This document shows, in pieces, positions 1,091 to 60,404 of a DNA stretch of 64,000 bases. The notes under the pieces are model-generated. The model was not told the DNA's origin. It did not search any database and worked only from the letters and a program-made list of their open reading frames with translations. The position numbers and the translations under genes are program-made. How positions within the stretch are numbered: the first letter of the stretch is position 1; the number at the start of each line of letters is the position of its first letter. The DNA lies in NCBI GenBank assembly GCA_051362555.1, contig CM120648.1, forward strand, positions 1,403,721-1,467,720, in the 5' to 3' direction. This stretch comes from Lingula anatina. Its lineage: Eukaryota > Animalia > Brachiopoda.

Positions 1091-4000
1091 CGAACGTTAC
1101 CCCTCCTCAGTTATGTACGGGATTTTGTCCCTCTGAGATGATTTTCCAGCCTGTGCATCGGCCGGTTGCCCAGCAACAGAATCGCAGACATCATGAGGAA
1201 AAGGTGAGGTGGATCAATTTTTTCTTCATCTTTGCTGAAACTTCAATTATATCCTTTAACTTGAAAACAATTTGCCATACATGATTATCATTCACAGATT
1301 CATATTTAACTGTCAGGATTTTCATCTTTTTTTTTCAATCGCAGACTTCATTGGGCAATGGCATTGAGTTTCAGGCCTCCACATCGAATAGTTTCAGCCC
1401 AGACACATCTAGTTCTGGGTTCCTGACTCTTCCAAGCCATAGTAAGACATCCAGTAGGGTAAGTATAATAAATGAATAAGTAAATAAATAATAATAATAA
1501 ATAATAATAATAATAATTGTTGTTTAGCTAAAATATTAAAAAATTTATTTAGCAGGCTATTAAATTTTTTGTGATATACAACTTGTTTAGCAAGTGAGCT
1601 TATGATTTTGGACCAAAAGTTGACTTTGGACATCTTTTTTGAGATGGGTCTCAGCAGCCTTTTCTCAATAATGTAATGGACTGTACGGTGGGGGAATCCG
1701 ATTTACTGCCCATCTCGAGAATATCTTTTTCAGTGGCTGATAAGATTAAGTCTAACATATTAGGTCTAACCAGCTTGATTGCAATTGTGATTTTAATTCT
1801 GTTGAATCATTGTACTTAATCGGAATTCAAACTTCCAAACTCTCCAACCTTTAGTTACATGCACGTCAGTGGTAAAATTAGTATCATTTTCAGTATCGAT
1901 TTGGTATAGCCAATGTACCAATTTCAATATTTTCAGTATCCATTTGGTATAGCCAATGTACCAATTTCAATATTTTCAGTATCCATTCGGTATAGCCAAT
2001 GTACCAAAGTTGGGTAATAAGGTGCTTAAAGGGTCTTCTAAGGGAACAGAAAGTACCAGCGTGTCCACGGACTTCTTACTAGAGAGTGACGGAAGTACTC
2101 CGATGTCAGAGTCTGCCCAGACAAAGGTTGGTGGACATTTTGGTGTGAATGAATCTGTGGCACCACTGAGTGAGGAATAGCATGAAGGAGTGTGGTACCT
2201 TTGGCTGAGTGAGGAATGGCAGGAATGAGTGTGGTACCTTTTGGCTGAGTGTTTTATAGAGATATTGGCAGCTAAATAGCCGGGCTATTACATGAGATGG
2301 TCCCCTACCTGTAACTCAAATAATCAGCTTCAAATGAACTTTTAGAGAGATTGTGAATGGGAGAAAAACCCTCCAACATGGCATAGTGACATGACATCAC
2401 CTGATTAGGTCGCCAATTTTGCTAACAGCTTTTATTTTCTTCATTTCCGCTTCAATTTATTATATGATTGTATCTTTATCATAGGAGTCGTCGGGAGACT
2501 CTGGAACAGTGTTAAAACTTGCGGAGGACCCCCCATGGATCTCAGCTGTTCCCTGGAATAAGGACACCATGATGCGTTACCAGTTACAACCCAAAAGGCT
2601 CAAGTCTGTGCTTAAATCAGATCGTGTTACCATGGAAACTGTCCTGCAGCCGGAACTGATGACGTCGCAGTTCCACCAGTTACTGGAGGATTTGGAGAAC
2701 AAAATTGCCGAAGTATGGAATATTTATGCTACAAATTTCTTGCCCCTCATATCTTTAAAAACTAGCAGAGATATGCCCATAGTGTTGCCCCCATACTACA
2801 AATGCAACAATGATAACACATTTCAAGGAAAAACAATAGGTCTATTGTCTAAAAAATCACAGGAGTCGCTATTTCTGAAGAAAGAGAGAGAGGGGGGGAG
2901 GAGGGAGTGGATTTTTTCTATAAAGCAAGTTTACTTGATATTGTACGTTTTTCATATTTGTCAGAATAGATTCCATTCACTAATAACAATTCAGAGCAGT
3001 TTCTTTGATTATGCTTGTAATATTGTTGCTTCCGGGAAATTCCCTTGAAACATTCGTGCTTTCAAGAAATGTCCTCGAACTTGGGCAGCTCACAACAGTT
3101 GTTAAATTTTCTATTGCTGCTTTCAGGAACTACCCCCGTCCTCTGCCTCCTCACAGTTGTATAATTGTTCTTTTTTTTCTGCTTACAGGAAATGTCCCTG
3201 TCGTCCGACAGCTCTTCTCAGGGAGAGACGAAGGGGCAAGCCAGCAAGCTGTGCTACGTCGACTGTAACAGTGAGACGCACGACCACGGCGTCTCCAACG
3301 TGATGCCCGAGACGGAGGCCATGAGCGACAGCACCGACAGCAACAATTCCAAAGGAATGGTCCACGTGCAGAAGCCGCGCAAGAGTTGTTCCCACCGCCG
3401 GTCCAACACCGTGCAGACACCGCAGCAGCAGCAGCAGCAACAGCAGCAGCGCCTCGCGGAAACTAAAGAGGCTTTGGAGCAGGACCAAAGGGAGCACGGA
3501 GAACAAGGAGAGGATCAGCTGCCCGAGAACGACGAGAAAGATTCGAGCTCAAAAAGTGACGATGGAGAGAAGAGCATGTCGGAAGGATCAAGCATCGATA
3601 AAAACTCTTGCGACAAAATGGACGGTGCGCAATCCGAGAATTCGAAGGCGGAGAGCGATAAGGCGGTGTCCAGCGATTTGACGCCCAGCGATGCTCGAAG
3701 TAATGAAGAAGAGCAGAACAGCTCTCTGAAGGAATCGGACCATTCCTCCGGCGTTGAAAACACAAACGGCAAAGACCCCACTGAAGCCGTCATGGACGAC
3801 GTAATGTCCCAGTTGTTTGTTCCCTTAAAAGCTCGCTTCCCGTGCAAGCAAAAGATTGACCCAGTTTCTCCATGGCTCAAAGATTTCCAGTTCACAGAAT
3901 CCGCAGCCAAGGAGTATCAAATGGACATGAAAACTTTAGAAGAGGTACTGGCGAAGGACAGCTTACAAATGAAGCAGTTTGTTCAGCCCGCTATGATCGG

Positions 4001-4229
4001 GGCGCAGTTTGCCGAGTTAAGGGTAAGATTAGAACAAGGCAACTCCACCTCTGAATCTCCGAGTGCCGATGCCAGGAAAGAAGAATCCACTGCGGAGAAG
4101 AACCCAGGAAGTCCGTTCGGGAACCTGTTCTACCCGATTCTAACCCAGATGGGCAGCGACGGAGACGCCGTGGGCTCGCAGTGCGCCATGTCCGTGGGAA
4201 GTGACGGCACGGACGGAAAGGGGACTTAG
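1091..4229 (+). CDS. per: Period circadian protein, 3' part (last 4 coding exons; 5' part lies outside the window)
   Basis: Exons 1091-1203, 1345-1458, 2485-2712 and 3189-4229 have AG/GT boundaries and join in frame. Exon 3 encodes EDPPWISAVPWNKDTMMRYQLQPKRLKSVLKSDR..LQP..QF..L, which matches from memory the PER C-terminal CRY-binding domain (vertebrate DPIW..MMTYQLP.R.LE.VLKEDRE.L..LQP). It follows a Ser-rich region. PAS domains are not in the window. Confidence 0.8.
1888..2007 (+). repeat. 43-bp tandem repeat (~2.7 copies)
   Basis: tttcagtatccatttggtatagccaatgtaccaatttcaatat repeated. Confidence 0.85.
2155..2252 (+). repeat. ~37-bp degenerate tandem repeat x3
   Basis: tgtggtacctttggctgagtgaggaa repeated. 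Confidence 0.6.
2735..2870 (+). mobile_element. Fragment of the H2 HINE family in the last per intron
   Basis: catatctttaaaaactagcagagatatgccc...catttcaaggaaaaacaataggtctattgtctaaaaaatcacaggag aligns with 61900-62040. Confidence 0.7.
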
Positions 4230-5435
4230 CGACTTGTGTGGTCGCAAAAATTAAAAATAAGAAAGAAAGAAAACTAAAGTGAAATTAGGAATACTCTGTA
4301 AAAATGGTCATTTGTAAATGAACGGGCTGGCGTGCATTTAAATGACGAGACGGCAAAAAAGAAAGAATTTTGAAAGCAGTGTTTTGCATGCAAGTGTACG
4401 TGGAAAAGAAGAAGGAAAGTTAATATTTTTCGGCCTGATAATTTGACATTTAACGTAACGTTTCTCTCGAAACCTCTTTTTGTATGCTTGCCAAGAATGG
4501 ACGACAAAAATAAATGACCAAGATAAAGGTAATTGCTAAACTTCTGGGTCCATTAAAAATTTTGTGTCCAGTTGATATGTATTTTTTTCGTAATTTATAA
4601 AAAGTTGGTATACTGTAAGTATGTCGCTGGGAAAACGTTATTTAAAAAAAGCCATGAGAATGAAAAAACGTTGTGGAGGTAGCCCAGCTTGTTGGTTTGT
4701 ACCTATACTTTCTCTCTGGTAGAGATTGTACCTTCTCTCTTCTCGGGTAGAGGTCTGCACTTTCTCATAACGAGAAGTAAAACTGTTTCATATTTACGAA
4801 AGGACAATATGGGTAACTTGAGTACTAGAAAGCATGGTGCTGACCAGAATGTTGATAGGTAAACGAGTGAAAGAAAAAAATAACAACCCAGGCATATTAA
4901 ATATAGACCATTTGTGATCGATTTTGTAATATGTATTATTTAATAAGTAAAATGTAACACGGTATAGTTATGATATAGTGGTCTTTTTTTCCATCCAAAA
5001 ATTAGACGGACATCTTCAGCGATCGCTGGCCGCAGTGTTTTAACAATGACAGGACAATAGATGGCGTTGTGGTCAGTTGGAGGTTATATACGGACTTCTA
5101 CTCCCTCCTCCCCCCCCCCCCAAATTATTGTTTTTCCATCGTTTTCAGGATGGACAATGACGTCATTCTAACTTTTGTATGGAAAAATTGAACAGTTTAT
5201 GCAATTTTGATTTTACGTTCAGAGGAACTTATTCCGAAAATCGCATAGCTTGTTTCTAAGTCGTTTAAAATTTTATGAACTCTATAAATAAAATTCCTTA
5301 TTGTTCCTTGGTCGTTTTATATTTTATGAATGTTTAAATAAACCCCCAAAAGCTTACAACTTTGTCTGAGTTTTTCAAGGTAAAAAGAATACTGAGAAGT
5401 AAAAAGCTTTTAGCCTGTTGATATTTACACCCATG

Positions 5436-11826: not shown

Positions 11827-14800
11827 ATATTGCTCTAACCTTAGCAAACATTGTTTTACCAGTGCCTGGAGGACCATAGAAAAGAATGTTTCTGTAGAAA
11901 CCCTTGTTCTTTTTCGTGTGTTTTGTAGCAATAGCTATCTGTCTAAGTTTCTCTTCTAAATCAGGCTGAAAAGAGATTGAAGTAGTAAAAAAGAGAATTT
12001 ATGGTTTTGCTTAAGATAAAAAAACTTGTTGTAAGTTGACACTAAACAAGGCAGCAAAGCTGTCAAATGTACAGACAAAAAGCAGGAAATTACAAAATAG
12101 GCTACTGTCAATTCTGATGCAAAAGTACATTATGTTAAACTGCAAATTCAACATCAAATTTTAATTATGCTCAACAGGTAATACCAATGTAAGTAAAATG
12201 TGTAACAAACATAAGGCTTCAGGCCCATGGGAGTTCAAGTTCACCCTTTGAAAATGTAAAACTTCCAGAGAAAGAAGTCAATTTGACTGCTTTTCCAACT
12301 CAGGCTACATTTTAGTCCTGTATTTCTTTTTTGAAAGTTTGGCAATCATAAGTAACATGGTTTTCCCAAAATGGTCATCATGGCAGCAGCACCTAAAATT
12401 GTGTTTTCTTCTATTCTGATGCAATATTACATAATGGTTACCAGCATAATGACCATCAATTTTTAATAATAAAATATACGTATCCTGGATTTTCAGAAAA
12501 TGTGAAAGCATGGGTCTTCAAGCCTGTGGAACATCAAAGTCACACCTTGAAAATGCCAATATGTGAAAAATTAAATTTTCACAAAAAAACTGTTTAACTG
12601 GCAGATTGCATTGCCTACTGAAGCTATATTTTAGTCCCATGTTTCTTTCCTGTAAGTTTGAGAACAGTAAGTGACATGGTTTTTCTTAAATGGTCATCAT
12701 GGGAGCAGAGCCCAAAATAGGTTTTTTCAAATGTTGATGCACTATTACATAATGTTTAACAGCATAATAACCATCAATTTTTAATAATAAAATATGAGTA
12801 TCATGGATATTCAGAAAATGTGACTAGCAAAGGTCTTCAGGCCCATGGAACTTCAAAGTCACAACTTGAAAATGCCAAAATGTAAACAAGACAGCACTGT
12901 TCTGAAATGTTTTTTTTTTTTCATTTTTAACAATTTTTTAACATAAAACAAAATTAACAGTTTACTGCCATTTTTATATGATCAACTAAAAAATTAATGA
13001 GATGGGAAAAATATCAATAGAGCAGTGTTAAATGTCCAATCTCTTCCATTCTGAGATTCTGAACATAGTGAATGATTGAATCTGACAAACTGCAATGATA
13101 TAAGTTTATTTCCATTTTTGAAACTTTATTACACAATACACCATAACAAATTAACCATCATTTTTACAAAATCAACTAACAATGTTGTAAAGATGCAGGA
13201 AATGTCAAACAAACACTTTTAATATCTTATTAATTAAATAATGAAACTGTTAACATGCCTAAGAATTGAATCTGAGGAAATGTGAAAAAACAACATAACT
13301 TCTAAAATAATGGCCCGATTATGCTGATCTTTTAACTCAACCTGCGTTTTAGTAAGATAGATTACTTCTGTGAGTTTCATGACAACAGGCCTATCAGTTT
13401 TCCTTGGAAAGTGTTTACAGTGTTGCATATATGCTGAAAAGTGAAAAATAAAGCATAACTTCTACAATAATGACCCAATCATGCTGATTTTCAAACTTGA
13501 CCTGCGTTTTATGAATATTCATCAGCTCTGTAAATATAAAGCCAAAAAGTAAAACTGCCTTCCACTTATCGTGTTTACAATGAAAGTGCACAGCGCCGAC
13601 AACGGCGATGACGGGGACGACAGACGCAGGTGATGGCAATATGTACAGACACATCTATATATATTTACTGTACTGTTTGAGAACAGTAAGTGACATGGTT
13701 TTTATTCTTAAATGGTCATCATGGGAGCAGTGCCCAAAATAGGTTTTTTTCAAATTTTGATGCAATATTACATAATGTTTAACAGCATGATGACCATCAA
13801 TTTTTAATAATAAAATATGAGTATCATGGATATTCAGAAAATGTGACTAGCAAAGGTCTTCAGGCCCATGGAACTTCAAAGTCACAACTTGAAAATGCCA
13901 AAATGTAAACAAGACAGCACTGTTCTGAAATGTTTTTTTTTTCCATTTTTAACAATTTTTAACATAAAATAAAATTAACAGTTTACTGCCATTTTTATAT
14001 GATCAACTAAGAAAATTGATGAGATGGGAAAAATATCAACAGAGCAGTGTTAAATGTCCAATTTCTTCCATTCTGAGATTCTGAACATAGTGAATGATTG
14101 AATCTGACAAACTGCAATGATATGAGTTTATTTCCATTTTTGAAACTTTATTACACAATACACGATAACAAGTTTACCATCATTTTTACAAAATCAACTA
14201 ACAATGTTGTAAAGATGCAGGAAATGTCAAACAAAAACTTTAACGTATCTTATTAGTTTAATAATGAGACTGTAATCATGCCTAAGAATTGAATCTGAGG
14301 AAAAGTGAAAAATATGCTGAAAAGTGAAAAAACAACATAACTTCTACAATAATGGCCCGATCATGCTGATTTTCGAACTTGACCTGCGTTTTATGAATGT
14401 TCATCAGCTCTGTAAATATAAAGCCAAAAAGTAAAACTGCCCTCCACTTATCGTGTTTACAAGGAAAGTGCACGGCGACGGCATTGGCATCGGCATCGCC
14501 ATCGGCATCGGCATCGGCGACGGCGACGACAGCCGCAGGTGATGGCAATATGTACAGACACATCTGTGTCTGTACATAAAAATGAAACAGACTGAGCTTT
14601 TATCAAATACAAGTAAATGACATAAAAACCAACTCACCTTTAGTATAATCCCTTGCACTGCATCTTGGGGCTTGGCAAACAGCCGTTTTGTTGTCTGTAA
14701 AATTACAATCAAAAATGAAATTGTGCACAGTGAACTTTTGGAAATGCATTTTAAAAGTTAGCCTATGACATATCTTGAACTCATAAAAAAGGTAATAATT

Positions 14801-17800
14801 TGAAAATAGATAGCAATAAACAAACCATTGAAGAAGAAATGACTTTTTATCAGTGAAAGACTAAATAAACTACTCACTGTTATGGGATGCTTCAATGTTT
14901 CAAACACGGACAGTCTTGATGTGTCTCTGACTAGAGAAGGTTTGCCGAGCCGAGCCTCTATAAACCTCGCCCCAACCCCTGTACCATACTTAGCAGTGTA
15001 CACTCCCACTGCTAGCAATGTCAAACCAGCCGCCTGGGGAAATATAGAGTAAAGGTCTCAACGCACCATTAATTATAAATATTGTTATGATTCAAATTAA
15101 CTATCTAAAAAGCATCATATCCCTAAAAAACAATAAATAAATTAAATAAAAAAAAGAATATTTTAAAAATTGGCATACATCTCCCACGCAAGGGATCTCT
15201 CGTGTGCATCTGCAACATCTTTTCTCTTTGACATTGTGGTTTTAACTTTACTTACTGTAGCTGATACTTTGTCCCAGTCTGATATAAAGGCTTGAAACCC
15301 TGACCCTAGGACTGAACCAGCAGTTCTGAAAGTGAGGAATCAGACATTTTCTATGAATTAAAAATCTCTTATTGCTTGGTGTAGGCCCTTATTTAAATAC
15401 ATATATAAAAAAATATACTTCAGTTTGAAGTTCATGGCATTTATTTGTTAAGTTCTTGTTCGTTTTTTCAAAAAGCAACAAAACTTCATTATCAAACTTC
15501 CTTACTTTATAGATTCTAAAACTGTCGTCCTTAATTCTGCCGCTTTAAGTTTTTCCTTTTCCATTATAATGTCTTTGTTTTCTCGGTCCACTTTGGCTCT
15601 TCCTCGTAATTCTGCCTCAAGTTTCATCATCTCGTACTTGTGCCGTAGTTCTGCCTCGTGCTCTATTGTGGCTAGAAATTAAAGTATTATCAATTATTTC
15701 ACCCTGTCAGCTGTTTCAAGTTTGGATTCTGATCAATGATAATATTGTTCATTAGCAATTTTTTGTATTGATACTTTAAATATACTTTTGAATGATGCGT
15801 TAATTTTAAGAACACCTGAAAGAAATAAATTTCTTATTAGTAATACATAAAATAAATATCAGTAGAATAATTTATTATTTTGATCCAACTTATCAGCATT
15901 ACTATAAAATGAGAAAAAAAACTTTTCTGTACTTCGTATCATGTTTATGCTCAGCTGTCAAAACAAAAACTGTTTAATAATCTAATATAAAGAAAACTCT
16001 AGCCATTACACAAGTAAAAACTTATAAACTTTCCTACTCACATCTCCTCATTGCCTCCTGTTTCTGAACAGACTCTTCTTGTGACCTCAGCTGTTGCTCC
16101 TGCATCTTTTGCTACAAAATTGAGAGAAAAATACAGACTTCTAGCTGACTGAAGGGAACATCTGCCTTCCCCTCCCTCTCTGTCTCTCTTTCACACACAC
16201 ACGCACGCACGCACGCACACACACACACACACAATTCACTTAAAATAATTACCACTAAAAGGTTAAATTTTACAAACATTACACATGTACATACAATATA
16301 TAAATAATAATTATAGACAAAAAATCAATTATAATTACAATATAAATATTAAAATTGATTGTGACATGGTCCTTCCTTCAATATTATCAATATCAGAAGA
16401 TGAATCTTTTTTAAACAGAAGTAAAAGATTGATTTATTTCAAACTCAAATACTTAGAATACTACACCTGTTGCACGAGCTGATCATCGTAACGTCGACGT
16501 GACAAAAGATCTTCATATTCTGCTCGCGCTTTCTGCTGTTTTGCTTGTTCGCCTAGAGTCTTTCTCCTCTCCTCCTCACTGATACGTATCTGGTCTCCTT
16601 TCATCTGCTCAATGGCTGCTTCATATTCCTACACAATACAAATTATATTAACTATGTAAACTATAAATGGCAGCGAGGCATTCCTTAGAAATCCAAACTG
16701 TAAACTAATAATAATTTAATAATTTATTCAGGTAATATACATATAAGACGATGAATAAGATATTAAGGAAGGTCATATTTTTCATTTGTACTGATGGACC
16801 AAGACTCACCTTTATCTTTGCCTGGTGTTCTATTTGCAGTGTTTGTTCTTGCATCTTGGTGATTTCCAAGGCTTCCTTGGCATGTTCTAAAATAATGACA
16901 AAAAGCTTTATCATGTTATGTAGTAAACGTGTCTAACAATTTTATATGCTCAATTTTTTTTTTTGCATATATGACGGACTAGTGTGGCATAATTAAGTCC
17001 TTTAATGGTGGTTTTAGATTCACTAACCAAAAAGGTAGCAGTTATATAAGTGCTCATTCCTAATATAACTATCATTCTATGTAGACCAATACAACTCTGT
17101 GGGAATGGTCGCTGAATGCAATCAGATTAACACCCTTCCCTATTTCCAACATACTTGTATATATTCGCCAGCTTTTTCTGTATACTACTCAACACCAAAA
17201 GGTGGTGTGTCAATCTGTTAATCTGATTGCATTCAGCCAGAGTTGGACTGGTCTGCATAGAACAACATTTTCACTGGGAATGGGCCCCTGAGTGTGGCAT
17301 GTGATTGCATTCAGCCAGAGTTGGACTGATCTGCATAGAACAATATTCTCACTGGGAATGGGCCCCTGAGTGTGGCATGTGATTGCATTCAGCCAGAGTT
17401 GGACTGGTCTGCATAGAACAACATTCTCACTGGGAATGGGCCCCCGAGTATGTTACTGGAAGAATTTTTCAAATGTACAATGCAAAGCAGATAAACATCT
17501 TTATTTTTCCATCTGGGAAGTCTTCAAGCATGTATGGGGATAATTGATAACATAAAAGTCATGGCAGACACGAGCAATATAACCCAAGTCCAGGTTCTAT
17601 GTCATTTTATGTTTTATTTTATTGTCCTGAGAATGTAATGACCTTCACACAGCTTCAAGTTCACACGTTGTTAATGAGCCCAGTCCTTTAAAGCCGCTGA
17701 TTTTTCACATCGAGCATTATAACTATCATCCCATCATTTAATTCCATGAACTCAAAGGTGTGACCACTTCTTTAAAGCACCATTTTGCTCATTTAAGAGT

Positions 17801-18167
17801 AAAATGACACCTTTGCCAAAGATTGCGTCACTTACATTGAGAGGAGTACGATTTGTCCAAGAAAATATACTTCCCTAGCAACGATACTTAATCAAAACCA
17901 CAAGGAGCGAGCTGTACCGAAAGCAACACAGCCGGTGAAGCTTTTTACGCCATGAAATAACTTACTTGAAGCTTCTAGTTCTTTTGCGGCTTTCGCTGCT
18001 CGCTCCAGAGCCGCCGAATCGAACCTGTATGCTTCCATCTTCTTTTGGTATTCCTTATCCAAATCTCCCTTGTCGCCTCCCCCACCTGGAGGAGGGGGTG
18101 GTGCCAGAGGGATCTCAGGAAATCCTGACGGGGTCGACGATTTACCTCCTCCAAATAACCACGACAT
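7655..18167 (-). CDS. ATAD3: ATPase family AAA domain-containing protein 3 (mitochondrial), complete, 15 exons, ~604 aa
   Basis: Exons: 18167-17966, 16886-16810, 16628-16467, 16111-16042, 15671-15506, 15325-15256, 15033-14878, 14694-14638, 11965-11840, 11650-11526, 10614-10563, 10355-10285, 9113-8946, 8492-8384, 7858-7655. All are GT-AG and in frame (1815 nt). Motifs: N-terminal [23 protein letters not shown], Walker [24 protein letters not shown], Walker [34 protein letters not shown]. Confidence 0.97.
12044..14582 (-). mobile_element. Helentron/HINE-like non-autonomous rolling-circle element in ATAD3 intron 8, with internal duplications
   Basis: On -, it starts T-run + palindrome ATGTACAGACACAGATGTGTCTGTACAT, followed by a (GCCGAT/GTCGCC)n microsatellite. 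It ends with subTIR TGTCTGTACAT + hairpin GACAGC-TTT-GCTGCC + TTGTTT. It contains ~300-bp repeats and a ~1020-bp direct duplication (12661 vs 13680). Confidence 0.75.
17050..17450. mobile_element. Family C-related MITE with its right end triplicated (78-bp unit x3)
   Basis: gctgaatgcaatcag...ctgattgcattcagc core. The unit gattgcattcagccagagttggactggtctgcatagaacaacattctcactgggaatgggccc repeats at ~17225, ~17303 and ~17381. Confidence 0.65.
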
Positions 18168-18214
18168 TTTTGGTTACTTATAGATTAGCTACAAGTTCGC
18201 CGTGTGCTATGTAA

Positions 18215-28900: not shown

Positions 28901-31417
28901 ATCAACAAAAACTACAGAAAGCAAAGCAAATGTAATATATCTCCACAGAGACACTCAAACTGAAGTTGTCACATTAAAGATAATCTTTCAGTTGTCTTTT
29001 TTTGGTGGTTCTAAGTCAATCTTGGGGGGGGGGGGGAGGTGTGGCTCAGCAATCGGAGAAAAAAGTCACTGACAGTGGCATCAATAAAGTTTTAAATTAT
29101 GATTTTTTTTACTGTATATTAATATCAATGTATTTCACTCTGAATTATTTTAAATAAAAAGAAAAAAAGGGTGATTTTTCTTAGGATATACTTTGGAAAC
29201 AATTTGTGGAATTCTTCCACTTTCCTCTCTTTCTCGGTAAGCTCTTTAATTGCTAAAAACAAATGTTTGACATTCTTTGTCATGAAATTTTACATTTTAA
29301 CAGATAAAATAAGATGCAAGAGCTTTTTGATTTTCTTTGGGAAATAAAAATGTTTTGTGGAGAAAAAAATAATAATCTGGAATAGGTGTTTCAATTCCAA
29401 AACTTACAAGGTCTTTCATCAAAAGTTAAAAGTCCAAATTCTTAACTGTCAAGTTTTATCATAACATATTAAGCCACACTGGTAATGAAGTTACTAAAAA
29501 TCTGATTTAATTTCATAAAAGTTGGGTCTAATATAATTCTGCGTTAGGAAGACTTTCAAGATGTCCAGATCAGAAATAGTCCACAGTATAACTTCAGGGA
29601 CTCCTTTCACAAAAGAACTTTAGCCCAAAATACATCTTAACTTTAAGACAAACTTTTCACTTGGCCTAATTCAGTCAGAGATAAAATCAAAGTTATCCAT
29701 TTAAATTAAATTAAGTATTGGCCTTGTCTTTCCATGATCCCAACATTTCATTTCACTGCCGATTCTTCTTGGGTTAAAGTAGACTAAAATTTAAGTCTGA
29801 AAGTTAAGATTAATTTTTGGGCTAAAGTTCTTCTGGGAAATGGGGCACTTGCAAAAGATTTGAGTGTCTCTGTGGATGGCTAGTAGATATATTCACAGCA
29901 CAGCGTAATCACAACAATAACCTTTCTCTTGGCTCCGACATTCACTGCCATCACGGGAGTGGATTTTTGCTGTGGAGGGCGAACAACAGGGGGCGCTGGT
30001 TTTGGGGGTGAGGCAGAAGGGCCGGTTTGCTGCTGAAGGTTGACAACAATGGGAGCAGGGGGCTGTTTTGGTGGAGTAGAACGTGGTGGGGAAGACACAA
30101 CTATAGGGGGCGCTGTTGGTAGTTTGGTTGGCGTGATTTGAACTGGGGATTTTTTGGGCGAGACGGGTGGTGAGGAAGATGGCGGTTTTGAGATCACAAT
30201 AGTCTGAGTGATTGGAGGGCGAAGTGGAGGAGTCATGTGACTGGCTGCTGAGGGGAAGGCCGATGTTAACTGGGCCACCGTCACTGGCTTTTGTGCTGGG
30301 GGTGGGGTAGTCTGGACAACCGCTTTGGGAGGGGAGATTAAGGGGGGTGTGGCCAAAACCCCGGGGGGAGCAGCCATGGCCATTATCTTTGGCTGTAGTA
30401 GAGTGGGGGCGGGAGGAGCTCCAACCTAAAAATAACATAAAAGAAAAATGAAAATAAAAACAAGAAAGAAAATCAGATGTATGTATACCTTACCTCTCAA
30501 AACCTTTAAAAAAATATCCAAAATGATGTTCATCATAAAATCTTTTCCTGCTTGTTTCTATTTGAAATCTATAGTTTGATACATTCTGAAAAATCTACCA
30601 AACTAATAAGGGTATATAGAACGCTCATAATAAATCCTATAGAGGCAAACCTTGCATGCTCTAGGCAGACACATGCAAGTTCAAATCATCAGAAACCTAC
30701 AGTATTTCTCAATGGAAGGGACAGAATATTTGACTGACTTTGTCCTATATTAGTTGATTTTTTTATTTATTCAGTTTATTGCTTATGTTGATTAAACCAA
30801 TATCCTAACTAATAATCCATCTTTACATTCCATGAAAAAGCAAAGAGTATTATATGTAACTTGTCACTCTGCCAATCTACAGTAGCAAAACAATAAGTGA
30901 AACAATTACCTCTTTGGATAGATAACTATCAAATTCATTTTTTTTTTAAATTAAACATAAACACTTAATAAATATAATATATTTGCTGTTTGCCCAATGT
31001 CTTAGCTGAAAACATGGGAGTACTCCATTCAATTTCCATAAATCTGTATAGAATTAGCAGCCACAGCTTCTAGTTGTTAACCACAAGTTGCCTGCTTACC
31101 ACAAATAATCACCATCTGACCTCAGGAGAAAAAATTACTACTAACACTGATGTGTAGAGAGTCTATCTGGCATACTCTGTCATGACACCATCAACACAAC
31201 CAGGAAACTCTGGATGAGATGGTATTTTTGAAGACTGATGTCTATTTGCTGATACACCTTAAGAGAGGCCCAACTTTTTTCTCTTCCCATTAAAAATAGA
31301 AACTTGGAAAATAATATTTTTATGAACACCACCTCCAATATAAATGGTACACCTGTCTTTCAAATTGCACCTTTTCATTTCTCTCCCTCCTTCCCACCCC
31401 AAAACCACCACAAAAAA

Positions 31418-39796: not shown

Positions 39797-42381
39797 CAAT
39801 GTTATGGAATGATTTGATTAAAATTCTGTAAGTGAAACAAGTATATTTTAATTTAACAATTTATAAAAACATTTATAATAACAAAAGGATTAAGTACATA
39901 TTTTATGATTTTTAAAGTTTCAATAAAAAAATTAACAAAACCAGTAGGATGATAGCTAGATATCCAGAAATAAGATGTTATAAATGAAACTAATTCAAAA
40001 CATGTTCATATGCATAGTAGGTACCTTGAAAAAATTTAAGGAGTGGACTGAAATTCTATTGTTCTTGTTTTTCTTTTATTTGTCCTGTCATTTATGATTT
40101 ACATAGTATGTAAATCAACAAGTGGGCCCCTTGTTGCCTAACATATCCAAATCTCATCTCACAGTTAGGCAACAATGCTCTGCGATTGCAACCATCACAG
40201 CTGTAGCAACCCATTGAATGGCATACAGCATTGGGTGAGAGTCACAACTGTCACAATCACAACTACACCATCTCTTGGAAATGTTAGCAAGGGGTTAATT
40301 TCAATGTTTTTAACACATATCACACCTGTTCAGATAGAGGGGCTTTTGAATTAATCATAATATTCCAAAGTGAAAGACATAAGGTAACAAAGAGATAAAC
40401 AGATTTTTAGACTACACTGCAAGACAACAATACCATATTGGAAAATGAATTATTAATGGCAACAATATGAATGTGGGCTAAAATATTCATGCATTTATAT
40501 CAAATTTCAAAATGGTGAGAAAAATTCAAAGAACTGTATTTATTTACTTATTATTCTTTGGTTCTTTTCTTTGAACACTCAACAAACCTAAGAATTTGGT
40601 TTCTTGCTTTGAAGTTAGTTGAATTATTCTTAGAATAGTCAAAATAAGGTCAAAAATATTAGAACTGGATACAGTATTATCAAGGTGGCTCCAGGGAAGC
40701 AAATGCAGTGCAATGCTTGGTAGTTTGCAAAAATTAGTGGGTCTCGACTAAAAATTATATTTCCCTTTTTTGAATATGACAGCAAATGAAACCAGCTTTT
40801 CATACTTTCTTTTTTAAAATGAAGTTCTTTCTCTTCTTTCCAAGGAATGGAAAGACTGTTACTTTCTACTTGATGTTTTTCTAAAGTAGTTTTTCTTTCA
40901 AATAAGAAAAAAAGCTTATTATTTTTCTTTTTTTCAAGGCATAAACCAACTTTTTCTTTTCTTTCTTTTTATTTTAAGTGTGGGAAGGGGGGTATACCCC
41001 TTCGACTTTCAAAACTACTCACCTCCTATCTGGAACCTTAAATTCCTTCTTCAGCGTCTCGGCTAACTTGTGGTTGTTCTCCTTCACCAACTGGTACATA
41101 GTGCGATGTAGGGACAGGTTCAGATACGGCTTGTTCAGCTCCTCCTCCATCTTACGCTGGTATTTTAGAAGTTTTACTTGTTCCTCTGTTACCTAGAAAA
41201 ATATCTGCGTATGTAATACTATATAATTCAAACATAATTGCAACGAAGACATATATTACAAACATTTGGACAGAAAAGTGGTATTCTGGGAGGCCTTCTG
41301 TATTTTGGGGTTGCTTATGTTGCCAAATAAAAAGTAGTAAAAGTTTTCACTTTCTAACAGCCAAAAGTATGATTTTTTCTCTTCTGTTTATTCACCTATT
41401 AATTTACAAATTTATTCAGTCATTTCTATATGGTCCATATGTATTTACCACTTCTATATTTTCTGTTCATTATTTTTTCTTTCTTTCTTTCAGCATCAAT
41501 CAATCAATCAATCAACTCCACCTACCTTAGCTGCCCACTCATTTCTGGCTTTATTATAGCACTCCATGGCGGCCATTAGGCAGTCTATGCGGGACTCTAG
41601 GCGCTGAAATAAAGACATGTACCCACTGAGCTGGAATTGTATGTTGAAGAGTTTTACACTTTAACCATTTTATAATGAACTTTCTGCAAACCCATCTCAC
41701 TCTCAGTCTTTAAACAATAACAGTTACATTTTCAAAAGGCGTTTAATTTTCTGAGCACGTTTTTCAAAATGTATTATTCACCATTTATTTGTACTTAGTT
41801 TCCATGAACTCAACTGAGCATTTTTAATGAACTTCAGACTCCAAATATTTTAACAATAACACTTACTATAATTAAATTGATTATTATTTTCTAACACCAG
41901 GCTCACTGCAGCATTTGCACTGCAGCCAACTTGCCATGTGCAATGATAAAATTTGTTCATTCTGAAATTCAAGACAAGCTGACAAATGTGCATCCTGGCA
42001 CTTACCTCCTCTGTGTAGCACTCTTTGACCCTGCAGTCCCCTTCTTCCTGGAAATTGTCCTCCTGGTAATAGAGATCTTGCAGGTTCTTCAGGTTCTCTT
42101 GGCGACAATACTGGAATTATTTACAATATATTTCATGAAAAGATCAACTGCATGTCTTGCATTTTGTCTAGGCTTTTTCTCTTCTATTTATTACCTTCAT
42201 TATCATTGTTATTATTATTTTTATTATTATTTATTTTTTTTTTCTTTTCTCTGGATTGAAAAGATCCATTTAGACCCCAAAAACTTTGTAAAGCAGGCTG
42301 ACGTCATTTATCTGGCATTAAATAAACCTACTAGTATATCTTGTACTATGTAACTGATCTGAGTTTTGATTATCACATAAC

Positions 42382-42421
<40 letters not shown>

Positions 42422-45400
42422 TGTAAATATAAAGCATGTGCCACTGGCATGTTCCTGATGGTCATGTAGAAATCTCCTAAACTCATCTTCTCCTTAAGGT
42501 TCAGTATCACCATATACACTGAAAATATACGATTTTAATATGTGATTTAATTAACACAAGCACACATACATGTATATTCAACATTACTCACTTTTTTCTA
42601 ATAATGAACAAGTTCCTTGGGTTATCTACCGACATAATCTGAAAGTCATGGTTGGACATTAATTAAGCAGGGGGAAGGAACAATGGTTCTGCCTTCCTCT
42701 TCAGTTGGAAGGGATAAATTTTGGGAATCTAGGATGCAATTTGGGACTTGTAACAGTGTCTGCTGGTACACATAAATCATGCTACCAGCCTATACTGTTA
42801 AAGACAGGGCCAGTTTATCTGCTTACTCAGGTGTGTGTCTCTACTTTCTATCAATTCAGACAGGGCCAGATAGACTGGGTTCCCATACTTAGATCGATCC
42901 ATCTGGATCGACGTAACTCCCTGGGGGTTCACGCTTAATTGCTATCAGCTCAAGAGGCTTATATGTCTGTCACGCCTACCGAATCAGCTAGGGTGAAGAT
43001 AATTACCTTCTAACAGTTTTACTAGGCGTGACAGACGTTTAAGCTGGCTAGTTTGATAGCAACTTAGTGAGACTTCCCAGGGAGATAGATCGATCCAAAT
43101 ATCTTAGGAAATGGTCCCTTAGAGCGCATTCTCAACGAATTAAGCCAGGCTTTACAAAGCCGGTGACCTAAAAATGGCGGACGTACATGAAAGAAAAACC
43201 GCCTAATCTTTTAATAGTCTCTCCGCCTCCCCACACGTCGTCCCTGCGGGGTACAGTAATTAAATCGCGTCTCCGTTCGCCATGCGGAAGCTACCTGAGA
43301 AATATTAAGTGCGCATGCTCATCAGTTAAACTCATGGTGAAGAAAGCATGGCGGCTGAAGGCGATCGAAGGAAAAAAGCTCTTCTGTTCTATTATCTTTG
43401 AAAACAGAGACGAAAAAGGAATAATTTGGCCCGTAGAGCAGCAATGAATCGACTATCTATGGAGATAATATCACCAGAGATATTCACGGAAATATTAATG
43501 TTCGGAGCCGAGATTTAATTACTGTACCCCGCAGGGACGACGTGTGGGGAGGCGTGTGAGAGGCGGAGAGACTATTAAAAGATTAGGCGGTTTTTCTTTC
43601 ATGTACGTCCGCCATTTTTAGGTCACCGGCTTTGTAAAGCCTGGCTTAATTCGTTGAGAATGCGCTCTTAGTCTACCAACTTAAGTACTGGGTTATGTGT
43701 CTCCCCTTTTTATTGGCTTAGACTGTCAGTTAGTTTTCAAACCTAAACTACTGTATGTGTCTCCCCTTTTCTACTGGCTTAGCCAGGCAATAAATTTACT
43801 TACTCAAGTCTGTGTCTCCGCTCTCTATTGCCTTAGACAAGGCAAGTTGTTCTTTCTTCATCTTCATCAGCAAGGGAACCTGCTCTGCAGCACGGGGTTC
43901 ATAGTCCAACAGCTGATAATGAGGATGAAAAGACTGTGAACATACACCAAATATGCAATTTGTCATTTTACTACCAAATCAAAGCTCAACTATCTGAGTA
44001 TAAGGGTGCTTTCCCAGAGATTTAGATCGATCTAAAGATTAAGATTTAGATCGACCTAACTCCCTGGGGGTTCACGCTAAATTGCAGTCAGCCGAGCGGG
44101 CACCATAGTTAATTACCCCCTTACAGCTTTTAGTAGGCGGGACAGACGCTTAATCCGGCCAAGCTGACAGTAATCTAGTGAGACTCCCCACAGGGATAGA
44201 TCGATCTAAAAATCTATGGAAATGGGGTGTAAGTAGTTCTAAAGAGAGCAAAATGGAGAAAAAAAATCTGAAAAGAAATAAACTAACAGTAAAATTACAT
44301 CTGATTCACCAAAAGAAAAGCACATAATGCTGTGGCAACGTGCCGCCTGCTTTGAATGTATTTACTATGTATATCTATTGTAGAAATAAATCTGTTCAAA
44401 AAAAAAAAAAAAAGAAAGAAAAAGAAAAAAGGCAAGGACATACTCCAAAATGGCTTCCAAATTTATGATGGCATTAACTTACAATTTACCTTAAAATGAA
44501 TCAATACACATTAATTGGCCTTTTTATTTCTAAAAACCAAAAGAAACAGCAGATGACTTATGAGTAAATACCAACCTTGAGGGTTATTGCTTAGAAGAGG
44601 AAAATGGTTGTCAGATAATCATTTTGAAATTCATTTTATTAGGAGAAACAAATAGAGAATACTGCAGAAGTAAGAGGACTAAATGGACAGAAGGAAAAGA
44701 AACTAAAATTTCAATTTTTTCCATTATATGTACCCTTGTTGCCAGCTCAGGTCTGCCCACATCCAAAGCTTTATTAGCAATTTCAGAATACGAAACACCA
44801 GGAGTGTCGCCCAACTTCTGAGATATAGAACGCGCTATGGCCTCATCCTCAACGCCAGTTTGTTCAACCTGAAACACACAAGTTTATACACTATGTATCA
44901 GATATTTAGTTTTCTCCAAATCATTCCAAATCAATTTTTTTCTATAGTTTACATGTGCTGAGTATATCTAAGGGTCATGCAAAATCTTTACAGGAAAACA
45001 ACTTAAGACAGCCAATTAAGACTCTGGTGCTGGTGACACGATAGTTAAATCTTAAAATAATCTTGGCTACAAAAACAAGAATTTTTGATATTTATTAAGA
45101 ATTTTATTTCTTATACATAAACCCCCTCACAAATATGCTAAATTAGTAAAACCATATATTTTGTTCAGCACTAATATCCAAATAACAGAGTACCCTTCCC
45201 TCTCTTTCAATAGAGTTACAAATATGGATCACAAACCTTATAACAAGCCCAGTGCGCCATGATACGACTGGCGCCATCTGCCTCAGGTATCTTGAGATAC
45301 TGACAAATCCTCACTGCCAGGGGGTAGTGGCGCCGCACCACCAGTCTGTCTATTAGCACCGGTAAGGTCAATGATTGCAATCTGGTCAGGTCAAAGTCAA

Positions 45401-48400
45401 TAAAGGTCATGCTTGAAAAATAGATCTTACCTTGATAATTCTAAAATTAAAAAACAACAATAACAACAACAACAAAATAACATCTAATTGAAACTTAATA
45501 AAATAGGTAAATTATCTAAGTTTTTTTTTTTTCAAAAATGTTAACAAAGTTATGTTTTCTTGGTAACTGCACAACAGTATTTTAATTTTAATTTAGTTAA
45601 AAACAAAAATGAATCAGATTCAATTAAAATGTAAAGTGATACGTGTAAGAAGAAGCAGTTTTATTTTGCTAACCTTATTTCATGTTAAAAATAACCTCCT
45701 ATATCCCTTACTCTTTTCAATTAAATTTTAAATCATTTTTTGTTATTTTACAACACTGTTAAGTCATTAATTAAGGATACTGTGTGTAGGTTAGAGGTAG
45801 ACCCACAGTGTAATCTCTAACTGCATTCAGCACTCTCAGCATCTGACACATGTTCACAAAGGTTTCTGGTCTCACGTCTGTCAGGAAACATTTTCCAAAT
45901 GACGCTGCCTGTAAGAGAAAATAAATAAAATGGTTTACAGTACAAAATTAACTTTTAGGTCAATGCTACATAAAAAAATGTACAGCTGTACTATCTGGAA
46001 AAAGTGTGTCAAAAGAGTTTCAGATTCATATTTGAAGTCATTTCAGAATGCAGCATTTTCAAGATGTGAAGAAAAGAAATTTAAAATTATTTTCATGGTA
46101 GATTTAGTCTGTCTTTACTGATTCTAGGCAAACATGCCATGAACATCTAAGCATTTTACTACAAATAAATCTTTCAATAGCCACTTGCACCCCATTTCCA
46201 TAGATTAGATCGACCTACTTTAGATCGACCTAACTCCCTGGGGGTTCACGCTAAATAGCTGTCAGCCGGGCGGACACGAAAGTTAATTACCCCCTTACAG
46301 CTTGTAGTAGGCGGGACAGACATTTAAGTCGGATTATCTGAAAGTAATCTAGTGAGACTCCCCGCGGGGATAGATCGATCTAAAATCTATGGGAATAGAG
46401 CCTTATACTTTTAGCTTACTCTGAGCAGTGCCTTCTGACTCTTGGGCTCATACTCATAACCAGCGCCCTCTATACATTGTTCAACTGCCAAGTCCAACTT
46501 GTCCTTGATCATTCTGATGTATTCGTCTGCTCGCTGACTTCCTTTCTAAATAAAACAAAAAGATAGCAGTTAAGCTAGTTTCATTTAAAATTCACACAAA
46601 AATTTATTATATGATTTGAAAGTACTGAGAGGTGATTAAGACAAAGTTCATTTTAGCAAGGAGTTTCTGCAAGAAACCATGTATTTGATAAGGTCTTGAA
46701 ATAATATAAAAGAAACTCAGAAGTGTTTGCCAGTAATTTATTATTTTTCTAAATAAAAACCTGATTAAATACCCCCTTGCAATTCGATAATATTCAAACT
46801 CTGTGAAATGCCTCGTTAACAAATGAATTAATTATTTCAAATTACAATGAATAATGTTACCACACTTTCTGTGAGGCACAAAATCTGAATTAATAACATG
46901 GCCATCCAAGAACAAGATTCACGACTCACCCCAAACTCCCTAGAAGCTTCATATAACATGGCACCAGGAGCCATAGAACCAATCTTGAAGATTTCTTCAA
47001 CAACAGCTGGAATTAAAAAAATAATACACTAAAATATTTTTAAAAATACAATTTGGATTGCTTTGTGCAGAGAACTGGAAACGAAAATGGCAAAAACAAA
47101 GTAATTTGCTAAAAATAATTAATTCTTAAAAAGTTTCATAATTTAACTTGGTATCCAAAATTTTCAACAATCAACTCAGCATTGTGTTTCTTTGTAGATT
47201 GAAAATTTTCTCTTTCTCCTTCTTAGCTCTTTTACAGGTGTCTCTCTCTCTCTAACTGATAAACTTACGTGGAACTCTCTGTAAAAATTCATGTGTATCA
47301 TTCCCTATGATTCTGAGCCCATCTATTTCCTGCACCAAAGTCACTGGAGTATCATAGCTGTATGTAGAAACAGTTAAGGATTCCCATGCTTTACAGTCTA
47401 AATATCTTTATAGATAATACAAACATTTTAAAATGGTTTTTAATGAAGTCATGCCAAAGAATATTAGGTAATTTTTTCACAGATTGATTTCCGCAAATTC
47501 GGACATCAGCATTCCTCTGACAAAAATATGAAATGTCAATGTCATCAAAACATGTAATTTTTTTCACACATCAATATAATAGTACAATAAATATTTAGCA
47601 TTATCTATTACTGTTGTAACTCCTTGATCTAACTTAAAGGTAACTGACTTTTTTGCCTAAAACGTATGACATTAAACACTTCAACCGACTACCATAAGAA
47701 TCTAATAACATGTAGAGTTTTAACATGTCAATAAAGATTTTATAAAATCAGTAAAGGATATTTCACCCAATCTTTAGAAGGTCCTACCATCAGGAGCAGG
47801 TTTAGCTCTGCCCAGTAACTTACTATAGAACCTGTACCACACCTGAAAAGAAGGTAAGTTGTCTGTTGAGATAGCATACTTCACTATTAGACAGTGTCAA
47901 GTTGGCTTTGACAAAAATGTCTTAGTTTTAAAGTCAGAATTAGGAGCACAAACACATTAGCTCTTATTTCTTATTTTTGTCTATAAATAATAGATTTTAA
48001 GTGTAAAAAGAACACTGCAAAGTATATTGATTGCAACATGTATTGAAATGTGTGGTATTGTATTTGCACTTTTGTGTATTCAGTGACATAAATATTGTAA
48101 ATGACTTTGATAAAATATAAATAAATAAATAAATAAATAAAATAATAGGCACTCACCAACAAAGTTGTGTGGGTCTCACTGCACTTTTAGTATTAAATTC
48201 ACAGTAAACTTTCTGCAACAGAAAATATATTTAATCACTTCTTTAAAATGAAAAATAAAGCAGTTTCAATTGCAGAGAAAAATAATAAATAGAATGCAAA
48301 TTTGGGATTTTTATTGACAAAATGGCATGCTTGTAGAGGTGGGATGGGGTAGACTTTTTTGAGAGAAAAAAGCAGCCATCCCTAGTCATTCTACCCCCAC

Positions 48401-57709: not shown

Positions 57710-59863
57710 CCAATGTTTTATCATTATTGGTAAAACAATGTTCCAATTTATGCTATTAGTGTTATATAGTTTTAAACAGCATGACTTGTGATTATTCATT
57801 TTATTACAAACTGAATGGACAGATACTGGTTAATAGGTCAAGTTTATAATCTGAAATTTGAAGAAGGTGCAGATTAAAAGTCTTGTGTACAGCTGACTGG
57901 GCAAATAATTAATTTTTTTAGCATGTGCATTTCATTTAAATTGTGCAGAAAACTGGTAGTCATTGGTGATTTGTGTGAGCTACATGGAATGTGCACAGCT
58001 GTACTCTTGCTTGTTTGATAAAAAATGGATTAAGGCTGGATGTAGATAATCTGTGACAAACAGGCATGCTTGCGCGCATGCACACACATATTCACACGCA
58101 CAGGTATCGTTTATATAAAGTGTTTGGCCTAAATACCTGTATTTTAACCTAGACTATGTTAAATACACTGTAATCAGGGGACCAGATAAGGATTATGGAG
58201 GGCTAATCACTTGGACTGATAAATCGTGAACCTATTGTTATAGGTAGATACATTAACCCCGAGTTTATTAATTACGTGTTGTTATTTCATTTTGGGTGTT
58301 TACACTTGTTTCCATTAACGCTAATCTATTTCGCTCCAAGTGACATCATTCTTCCATAATTGTAATCAAGGAGGAATGTCCACAGCATGAGTCGAAATGT
58401 TTAAATCAAGTCTGGGTCAATTTCATTTAAAGAACTTCAGTCCAAAAATTTGTCTTCATTATAGGCCAAAATTCTTGATGTCTTCGGTGAACTGAAATGT
58501 TTAGTCGCAGATCTGTTTTAAAACAATAAAGAAATGCTTCAGACCAGTTATTATTTGATTAGATTACTATCAATATATGTAAAACTGAATTGGACCAAAT
58601 AGTTTTCGGTCCAACAGCATTGGCAAGTTCTGTACTAACGTCAGCTGGATTGTAACAGATATGCCCCATTGGCTGCTAGTGTGAATGCCCCTCTGGCTGT
58701 ATCAGCGTGACCCACGGACTGATAAAGTGATAAGGTTTTGACAGTAAATTTGGAAACTTTAATTTTGGATATCTATATGGCAGTCGGTATGTGTACCACC
58801 TTTCTGTTTGCAGTCCTGTTCTTTTGCTTTATTTTCTTATGTATGGACTAGTTAGCCTCTAGGTTCAGTATATATGCTTAGTGTAATTTAAAATTCGTCA
58901 AGAATTTTATTTTACACTTCATGTTTTTTACTGCACTCATTTCATTGGTGTTTTTCTTTTCTGGATATTGTAAGACAGTAGAATTGTTGGAGCTTGACAT
59001 ATTTAAATATTATGTAGTATAGTTGCATATTATATTATATATATTAATTCAGTTTTTCCCACTGAAATGCAGTTGGTTCAAAAAGCGATCACAAAAATGA
59101 TGAATGAACTAAAGACAGAAGGCTTGCCTAGAATATTCTTATCTTTATTAATTTAAAACACAGTAAGGGAACAAATTGTTGGGTCAAACTAATGACACAT
59201 TTGCTTGGAATGAGGAGGGAAAACTAATTAAATGTGACCATTTTGAGGAATTTTTTAATGTAACTAAACCACAAAAATTCAGTTAATGCAACAAGATATA
59301 ATTGCAAAGGGTTTCATTTTTTCCTCTTTGTAATCAAATGTCAAAAATTCAGGACGTAAGACAAGATACGCTAAGTAGGGCAGGTGATAATGGATGTTTG
59401 TCAAAATAAGATGTATATGATTCCAGTAATCTAGAAGGAAGTAAAAAGCAGGCATAGGGCAATGTTTGGAGGGGTGGAGAAAAAAAAAGAACATTGTTGG
59501 GTATTAGAAACTTAAAAGGCTCGTTTAACTAGATTGCAGTTTAATGGAAGTAAGTCACTGATTTAGTCATCACTGTAGCCACCTCTCTGTTAAATATAGG
59601 CCTAGCAAAAATCAGGGTAATTACCCAAATTGGCACAACTTTGGCTAGGCGTGGCAAGTGTTGTTATAGCTGTCATGTAAAGGTCGCCATTACAGTTGTT
59701 TTAAATTCTGAGTAGCAAATATGGGAACTGAAATTATCCTGTTCTGACAGCTTGATTATATCATGAAAATGTTTATCCTTTTTGCTCCAGATGTGCAGTG
59801 AAGTTGTCCATCTATAACCCCGCGTGAGCAGTGAGAGATGGAAGTGTAGGTGGCAGCAGCAGC

Positions 59864-60099
59864 ATGGGTCCTTACCAGTTGGATTACTGGTCCACGGAGA
59901 ACTCCAACCCTTGTATTAATGTGGACTGCCTGCTGCCCACTGGGCTCCTAGTACCCCTCCTGGTCTACAAAGATGCCACGTTGGAGCAGATTAAACAGGT
60001 AGGGGGTATCTCTGACACCTCCCCCTCCCCCCCCCCCCCTCCTCCTCCAAAAAGAGAAAAAGAAGTGAGATATGTAGATATGTTATATCATTCAGTTAA

Positions 60100-60159
<60 letters not shown>

Positions 60160-60386: not shown

Positions 60387-60404
60387 GTAATGACAGCATC
60401 ATTA

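Follow-up and report, generated by a model that had tools for sequence, protein, structure and literature searches.

What does a clock repressor gain from carrying its cryptochrome (CRY)-binding domain twice? The question is raised by the 3' end of the Lingula anatina period (per) gene, which lies in the window analyzed here (64,000 nucleotides of contig CM120648.1, positions 1,403,721 to 1,467,720 of the forward strand) and encodes two Period_C, or CRY-binding-domain, cores on the + strand, copy 1 at 2530..2697 and copy 2 at 3867..4034. An earlier note, made from the sequence alone, had described these two repeats as peptides of 56 residues each that align without gaps with 17 identities, and retranslation reproduces this exactly; the linker of ~230 residues that it placed between them measures 231 residues (5 + 226), and the spacing from anchor tryptophan to anchor tryptophan is 287 residues. 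The two copies match each other with a BLASTP E-value of 2e-8 and a local score of 86, compared with 30.6 ± 4.8 and a maximum of 59 in 2000 shuffles. Both are Period_C domains as the note had proposed: against a gathering cut-off of 25 bits for Pfam PF12114, copy 1 alone scores 48.0 bits and copy 2 alone 34.5 bits (3768-4226) or 31.7 bits (whole exon), and the two Pfam matches expected for the protein are both found. Copy 1 further matches the solved PER2 CRY-binding-domain chains 6of7_B, 4u8h_B and 4ct0_B. The ESM Atlas returned one Period_C cluster at 0.77, which we treat as a lead only.

Do both copies belong to one expressed per gene? The last exon of the locus is 100% identical to P0001, an L. 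anatina protein of 1166 residues that NCBI names 'period circadian protein homolog 3', and five exons of the window occur letter for letter in P0001 (residues 621-1166). By Pfam, P0001 combines a PER-type PAS-B (PAS_11, PAS_3) with two Period_C stretches, in agreement with the earlier assignment of the gene to per. The top fold matches of its PAS region are Drosophila and mouse PER PAS structures, Foldseek with the full P0001 model reports the PAS domain alone, and the best of its relatives that bear a family name are period proteins, in keeping with orthology to named PERs. The database model of P0001 has PAS-B without PAS-A, and its start is therefore probably placed too far downstream; the two-copy orthologues, used as a profile, match full PER PAS-A/B structures. 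Copy 1 lies in the coding exon at 2485..2712 (+; phase 0-0; residues 745-820; Pfam and RNA reads), and the last coding exon at 3189..4229 (+; residues 821-1166 plus stop) holds an acidic/Ser/polyQ linker, a linker motif, copy 2 and the tail. RNA runs under the same species label were mapped (6 of 9 distinct runs plus X5: X1, X2, X4, X5, X7, X8, X9), and the GT..AG junction 2712/3189, for which the note had asked RNA confirmation, is read in 4/4 runs (X1 13, X4 6, X2 18 and X7 11 reads; in X7, a diverged sample, it is placed at 2710/3187). RNA depth over copy 2 is similar to that over copy 1, and no joint that skips the copy-1 exon is among the junctions listed in the RNA runs. Reads pile up at 2736-2866 in the intron between the copies, and a similar pile stands at about 860-1020. 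The 2736-2866 reads are loose-ended at either side, as reads from a dispersed repeat transcribed at another place would be, and for this reason read-through into the intron after copy 1 was rejected as a main isoform.

The duplication is old, because third codon positions between the copies are saturated (18/56 identical, within an overall DNA identity of 77/168, or 46%). A recent tandem exon duplication or an assembly artefact is ruled out by that 46% DNA identity, by the spliced reads and by 14 genera with the same layout. Selection on copy 2 was gauged from runs X7-X9, which bear the same species label and whose sequence departs from that of the window at several percent of sites. Silent and replacement differences in these runs number 21 and 2 over 3741-4226, 9 and 0 over 3768-4034 (P 4e-7 under neutrality; 2 of the 9 are polymorphic within those runs), and 4 and 0 over the copy-2 core (P 0.0013). 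Copy 2 is thus under purifying selection, which shows a functional reading frame and not a special constraint on copy 2. Together with the saturated third positions and the conserved anchors described below, these 9 silent and 0 replacement differences uphold the view of an old duplication kept under selection.

Is the arrangement peculiar to Lingula? Homologues came from phmmer with P0001 against 1.84 billion representatives (the best 150 of 713 matches) and from word-index searches (P0001 and P0002 only; another gave 90 proteins, nearly all insect PERs), and were scanned with a local domain profile trained on one best domain per protein, Lingula copy 2 excluded. Of 238 proteins in a first scan, 15 had two copies, 160 a single one and 63, fragments for the most part, had none; the corresponding counts in the final set of 268 proteins, isoforms included, are 29, 171 and 68. 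In this sample names were checked for 30 representatives, many outgroup rows were assigned as arthropod- or vertebrate-like by a PAS tree, many insect rows are redundant isoforms, and no named annelid, cephalopod, phoronid or flatworm PER is included; the lengths listed for annelid PERs, 1300-1560 aa, would allow for two copies. Two clear Period_C copies are present in 14 named genera, namely the bivalves Potamilus, Mactra, Pinctada, Mizuhopecten, Saccostrea, Mya and Sinonovacula, the gastropods Plakobranchus, Nucella, Haliotis, Tritonia and Patella, the nemertean Lineus and the brachiopod Lingula, as well as in proteins P0099 and P0108. The idea of a Lingula-only novelty is rejected on this count. 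What the note had called an unusual architecture stands in that the two copies are real and fails in that they are not peculiar to the Lingula gene: by sequence, two domains are the usual state in the molluscs sampled, as in a nemertean and Lingula. Its statement that one copy per PER is normal holds for the arthropod and chordate PERs examined: a second copy is found in 0/163 single-domain PERs without the linker motif (mostly arthropod and chordate), and the best second match in proteins without that motif, plus amphioxus, is 1.5 bits. Departures from the layout within the group are few. In Babylonia the second copy is decayed (19 bits with the clade profile), and Tubulanus PER has copy 2 only in 3/3 isoforms; the Tubulanus polymorphus models (P0105, P0252, P0253) keep the pre-copy-1 motif and the linker motif and miss the copy-1 core, which is either a natural deletion or a missed exon. 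The Mytilus coruscus PER model (1087 aa) is probably cut short, because it ends directly after the motif preceding copy 2 and other mytilid PERs are longer (1214-1257 aa). P0100 and P0106 stop before the linker, and the Gigantopelta PER is listed as partial.

The copies are joined by a lineage-specific element. A near-invariant linker motif, S-x-L-T-P-S-D-x-R-S-x-E-E-x(2-3)-S-S-L-K-E-S-D, lies at 3669..3740 (+; residues 981-1004) and is a candidate phosphorylation cluster, its TP site and S-x-x-E sites being presumed phosphorylation sites under general kinase consensus rules. It is found in 29/29 two-copy proteins and holds 9 of 38 invariant columns in alignment A2 (20 proteins), and its block conservation is 0.72, compared with 0.37-0.50 in the two cores. 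A mollusc-only profile of the motif scores Lingula, Lineus and Tubulanus at 39-43 bits and proteins outside the group at 6 bits or less, and in Pfam the motif has no family of its own. Directly before copy 2 runs a conserved F/L-x-x-L-F-V-P-L helix at 3789..3827 (+; F1030 invariant; predicted helix 1017-1029), which is present in all three phyla (brachiopod, nemertean and molluscs). A second F-x-x-L-F motif that resembles it occurs in the PER tail at about 4113-4145 (+), and such a tail motif follows copy 2 in 6 of 16 proteins, including Pinctada, Saccostrea, Haliotis, Sinonovacula and P0108.

How closely do the two cores resemble a domain that is known to hold CRY? The mouse PER2 domain is an extended helix chain whose W1139 is buried in the CRY cleft and whose D1167 forms a salt bridge to Arg501 in CRY's C-terminal helix; PER2 binding excludes FBXL3 from CRY by competition (Nangle et al. 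2014, PMC4157330). Compared with the mammalian PER1/PER2 domain (PF12114; PDB 4U8H, 4CT0, 6OF7), the Lingula copies share the PxW, YQ, L-x-x-V-L-x-x-D and QP core, the 28-residue spacing from W1139 to D1167 in both copies, and short helices without a globular core. W762 and D790 of copy 1, and W1049 and D1077 of copy 2, correspond to W1139 and D1167, the PER2 numbering having been checked against two residues named in PMC4157330. The W1139 equivalent is present in 16/16 species in both copies, the conserved Y in 15/16 in each copy, the L1164 equivalent in 15/16 for copy 1 and 16/16 for copy 2, and the D1167 equivalent in 15/16 in each copy and 21/21 in the outgroups. At the PER2 L1171 position the two copies have L/I/M/V or L/M/T, with M in both Lingula copies, and the helix-3 hydrophobic face (PER2 1171-1174) is present, position 1174 being judged from the PER2-match alignment only. 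In the AlphaFold2 model each core forms an island of helices, predicted with moderate confidence, within a C-terminal half that is disordered (mean pLDDT 45); the helices of copy 2 lie at 1048-51, 1057-62, 1070-82 and 1088-1103 (block pLDDT about 54-75), and the linker is predicted to be disordered (pLDDT under 50 for most of 826-1019). The mammalian protein differs in having one domain and not two at a distance of 217-435 residues (two rows anchored on a neighbouring W), and the proteins studied here differ from it further in the absence of the CxxC clasp, in the basic helix 3 of copy 1 and in the lineage-specific linker motif. The PERs of arthropods (bee, ant, moth, horseshoe crab and krill EsPER; PMC5735174) share the clasp-free protostome core, the terminal Q-L-x-x-L helix and the presumed partner mCRY/CRY2, and differ in having one copy in every arthropod PER examined and no linker motif. 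Amphioxus (Branchiostoma) PER likewise has one domain and differs by the absence of a second copy; after its domain comes a short stretch, SSxKESD, that matches the linker motif's end (a partial match of 6 bits that may be chance).

The two cores are unequal in charge. Between the conserved Y and D, the helix-3 segment of copy 1 carries a mean net charge of +3.75, as against -0.69 for copy 2 and -0.76 for the one domain of 21 single-copy outgroups, and copy 1 lies above copy 2 in 16/16 species; in Lingula, copy 1 is at +4 and copy 2, with a neutral/acidic helix 3, is at -1. Copy 1 of Lingula also outscores copy 2 against outgroup profiles, with 52.6 vs 42.7 bits (arthropod) and 25.5 vs 14.0 bits (chordate), and this better match counts against copy 1 as a degenerate domain.

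Which cryptochrome would such a protein meet? Lingula possesses mCRY (XP_013416713), dCRY and dTIM (Bullo et al. 2025, PMC12049834 supplement; Deppisch et al.), and molluscs possess both mCRY and dCRY (Deppisch et al.; Bullo et al. 2025). Period_C is present in hymenopteran PERs, and Hymenoptera have lost dTIM and dCRY (Bullo et al. 2025); it is absent from Drosophila PER (P0087; so also the Hemiptera preprint), and Drosophila lacks mCRY (Bullo et al. 2025). By analogy with these insects mCRY is the expected partner of Period_C, because Hymenoptera keep the domain without dCRY and Drosophila has lost both mCRY and the domain. The earlier suggestion that the copies could take up two different CRY types is poorly supported by the same pattern.

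The reading that we favor, with about as much doubt as conviction, is that the two expressed, conserved copies each likely form a separate docking site for the repressor-type mCRY/CRY2 and that the two sites are unequal. Each core would wrap one mCRY as the PER2 domain does. Since a given CRY surface has room for one core only, a PER monomer could carry two mCRYs, or could catch one more efficiently. The mCRYs so bound would be shielded from FBXL3-type turnover. Copy 2, whose outgroup-like neutral/acidic helix 3 would face the basic C-terminal helix of CRY, is the better candidate for the strong site, while copy 1, being Lys/Arg-rich at helix 3, would probably be weaker or may also act as a signal for nuclear import. 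The likely role of the invariant Ser/Thr motif, which lies 50-70 residues ahead of copy 2, would be that of a phosphorylation switch tuning access or stability. The presence of copy 2 alone in 3/3 Tubulanus isoforms is consistent with copy 2 being sufficient.

Several observations weigh against two CRY-docking sites with a shared history. We infer every CRY-binding step. Searched alone, copy 2 has only a weak match to the solved PER2 domain (E 0.81), which ranks lower than matches to unrelated ApcE; the ApcE matches themselves were dismissed as chance. The tail after copy 2 is also constrained (11 silent and 2 replacement differences), and purifying selection is thus not specific to copy 2. 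The contrast in charge was spotted after the fact, in species that are not independent. In krill, PER and CRY2 showed synergy and no dimer by co-immunoprecipitation (PMC5735174), and for this reason the single protostome domain is not proven to be a strong binder. Neither Lingula copy has a CxxC zinc clasp within 110 residues of the anchor W; PER2 shares a zinc with CRY through its CxxC, and loss of the clasp weakens mammalian binding (PMC4157330). This absence is not peculiar to Lingula, as the arthropod and amphioxus PERs compared also lack CxxC: it occurs in 1/32 lophotrochozoan copies, 0/8 arthropod/amphioxus domains and 2/2 vertebrate-type domains. On the side of history, the copies of Lingula and Lineus and most forks of copy 2 have no resolved place in the domain tree, and under approximately unbiased (AU) tests both one origin and a Lingula-only duplication (p-AU 0.57) remain acceptable. 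The AU tests, which used a short domain, 29 of 55 rows and a quick tree, reject none of four groupings, and they have no weight because even an almost certainly false clade of Haliotis copy 1 and copy 2 survives. A co-fold of copy 1 with copy 2 scored 0.00 with the alignment not used, and is evidence neither way.

Could the cores have been kept for something other than cryptochrome? The missing clasp and the krill result would both fit a protein in which neither copy binds CRY and the cores serve self-association, CLOCK/BMAL or a WD40 protein, and the mammalian domain region is reported also to bind WDR5. We regard this as highly improbable, since the conserved positions are the CRY-contacting positions of PER2 and since the domain is gone in Drosophila, which has lost mCRY.

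A more serious alternative is that the copies divide the labor, such that copy 2 alone is a true mCRY site and copy 1 has been recruited to bind importin, dCRY/L-Cry or another clock protein. A basic segment is a consistent feature of copy 1 at the place where the outgroups have a neutral or acidic one, the molluscan copy 1 forms its own long-stem clade with support of 99/99, and the Tubulanus models have lost copy 1 only; moreover, both mCRY and dCRY are present in Lingula and molluscs, and the doubt cast on dTIM-PER binding, which Bullo et al. 2025 question for molluscs and annelids, leaves room for another light-input route. However, the W, Y, L and D anchors are the same in copy 1 as in copy 2, Lingula copy 1 matches the arthropod and chordate domains and the solved PER2 better than copy 2 does, and across insects Period_C tracks mCRY and not dCRY, so that we consider this division doubtful, though deserving of real weight.

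It is also conceivable, and in our estimation quite unlikely, that PER never holds more than one mCRY at once, using either the copy that happens to be exposed or halves of both, with the linker motif switching between two states. The PER2 domain does have separable modules, N-terminal (W1139) and C-terminal (helix 3) (PMC4157330), the linker is long and predicted to be disordered, and the motif within it is better conserved than either core. Against this, each copy has both of its halves conserved, and a split site would not call for that.

Did the second domain arise once? Because the near-invariant linker motif is common to 29/29 two-copy proteins, one old duplication before brachiopods, nemerteans and molluscs split is likely. 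Outside molluscs this single origin is based on the linker motif and profiles, not on the tree. In leave-one-out trials the mollusc-only copy profiles are correct in 27/28 cases; they sort the copies of Lingula and Lineus according to position and place Tubulanus with copy 2. In the domain tree, 13/14 molluscan-group copy 1 rows plus Mytilus form the long-stem clade mentioned above. Independent duplications in brachiopods, nemerteans and molluscs, an account that concerns origin only and is compatible with any mechanism, could be argued from the unplaced Lingula and Lineus copies and from the Lingula copy 1 plus copy 2 clade that the AU test leaves standing. We judge them extremely unlikely, because all three phyla have the linker motif and the LFVP-type helix between the copies, in one and the same order, the mollusc-only profiles recognize the Lingula and Lineus copies by position, and the basic copy 1 pattern is common to the phyla. 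Copy 1 probably holds the ancestral position, because a conserved Ser/Thr-acidic-hydrophobic motif upstream of it at 2046..2090 (+) likely corresponds, in a side-by-side comparison judged by eye, to the one that precedes the single domain of arthropods and amphioxus. In three bivalves there is a weak match (2-6 bits) between the linker motif and this pre-copy-1 motif, a hint that the latter was part of the duplicated unit.

Has the double domain been noticed before? Molluscan PERs in print (Bathymodiolus, PMC7351958; Crassostrea, PMC5224872; nudibranchs, PMC6180908) are products of the orthologous gene, and those of Mizuhopecten and Tritonia are also analyzed here; the difference is that one Period_C or only PAS domains are described. 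Perrigault and Tran (PMC5224872) and the nudibranch paper (PMC6180908) mention only N-terminal PER domains in their available parts, and Bullo et al. 2025, which covers Lingula and many molluscan PERs, leaves the double domain unmentioned in its available parts. Two Period_C domains per PER are likewise not described in the available parts of the Hemiptera preprint, Deppisch et al., the Mytilus preprint, PMC5735174 and PMC11645128, nor elsewhere in the literature searched, whose scope excluded figures and the subscription papers on razor clam, abalone and pond snail. We consider it fairly probable that the double Period_C has not been described in print, and automatic database annotations probably show two matches for some PERs. 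Lingula apart, Pfam alone finds two stretches in 10 of the 15 two-copy proteins compared, a single stretch in 4 and no stretch in Lineus; with Lingula included both copies are visible in only 11/16 two-copy proteins, for which reason published cross-species comparisons of Period_C may have compared different copies. Bathymodiolus PER is reported to have one Period_C of 137 aa, vs 58 aa in Mizuhopecten (Mat et al. 2020, PMC7351958). This length comparison may be between different copies, because the single 58-aa stretch that Pfam alone finds in Mizuhopecten is copy 1, where the clade profile finds both (76-77 bits), and Pfam copy-2 matches are often 130-160 aa long.

The domain annotation is corrected accordingly, and the correction bears on more than annotation. 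Clock models for molluscs and other lophotrochozoans, built by analogy with fly and mouse, assume one PER-CRY contact. The second domain, the charge split and the invariant linker motif are three precise features that can be mutated to learn how the repressor complex is put together in these many animals, which keep circadian, circatidal and lunar time. We also hypothesize, as an unlikely reading, a two-handed PER in molluscs, brachiopods and ribbon worms, in which an acidic mCRY site and a basic site for a light-sensing cryptochrome or importin, gated by the phospho-motif, would be of roughly Cambrian age and overlooked. If true, such a protein could replace the weakened PER-TIM link reported for these animals, and one PER could support two complexes, which is relevant to shellfish clocks with daily and tidal periods.

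The remaining exons of the gene lie upstream of copy 1 on the same strand. The coding exon at 1091..1203 (+) encodes P0001 residues 620/621-657, its junction 1203/1345 is read in 4/4 runs, and RNA reads continue upstream of 1090 into an exon beyond the window. It is followed by coding exons at 1345..1458 (+; residues 658-695; RNA reads) and 1980..2126 (+; residues 696-744), the latter with a donor junction 2126/2485 read in 4/4 runs. Its acceptor at 1980 is based on P0001 and read depth, the joint 1458/1980 being absent from the junction listing. A 43-bp tandem repeat at 1886-2007 (+; 2.8 copies, 97% matches) spans the end of the intron and the start of this exon, and for that reason the acceptor is present in triplicate; P0001 and read depth indicate that only the last of the three is used. 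A 39-bp tandem repeat of about 2.2 copies lies at 2156-2251, directly 3' of donor 2126. The 3' untranslated region occupies 4230..5300 (+) by read depth, with AATAAA at 5287 and 5337 and an approximate end.

Elsewhere in the window, exons of an ATAD3 AAA-ATPase gene lie at 14761-18173 (-; three Pfam ATAD3_N matches above cut-off), exons of a Vps16 gene at 41022-49389 (-; Pfam Vps16_C and Vps16_N) and the start of a class I PI3-kinase catalytic subunit gene at 59828-60539 (+; Pfam PI3K_p85B at 60291-60539). Overlapping long open frames at 29883-30489 (-), one of them Pro/Ser/Thr-rich (181 aa), have no Pfam match.

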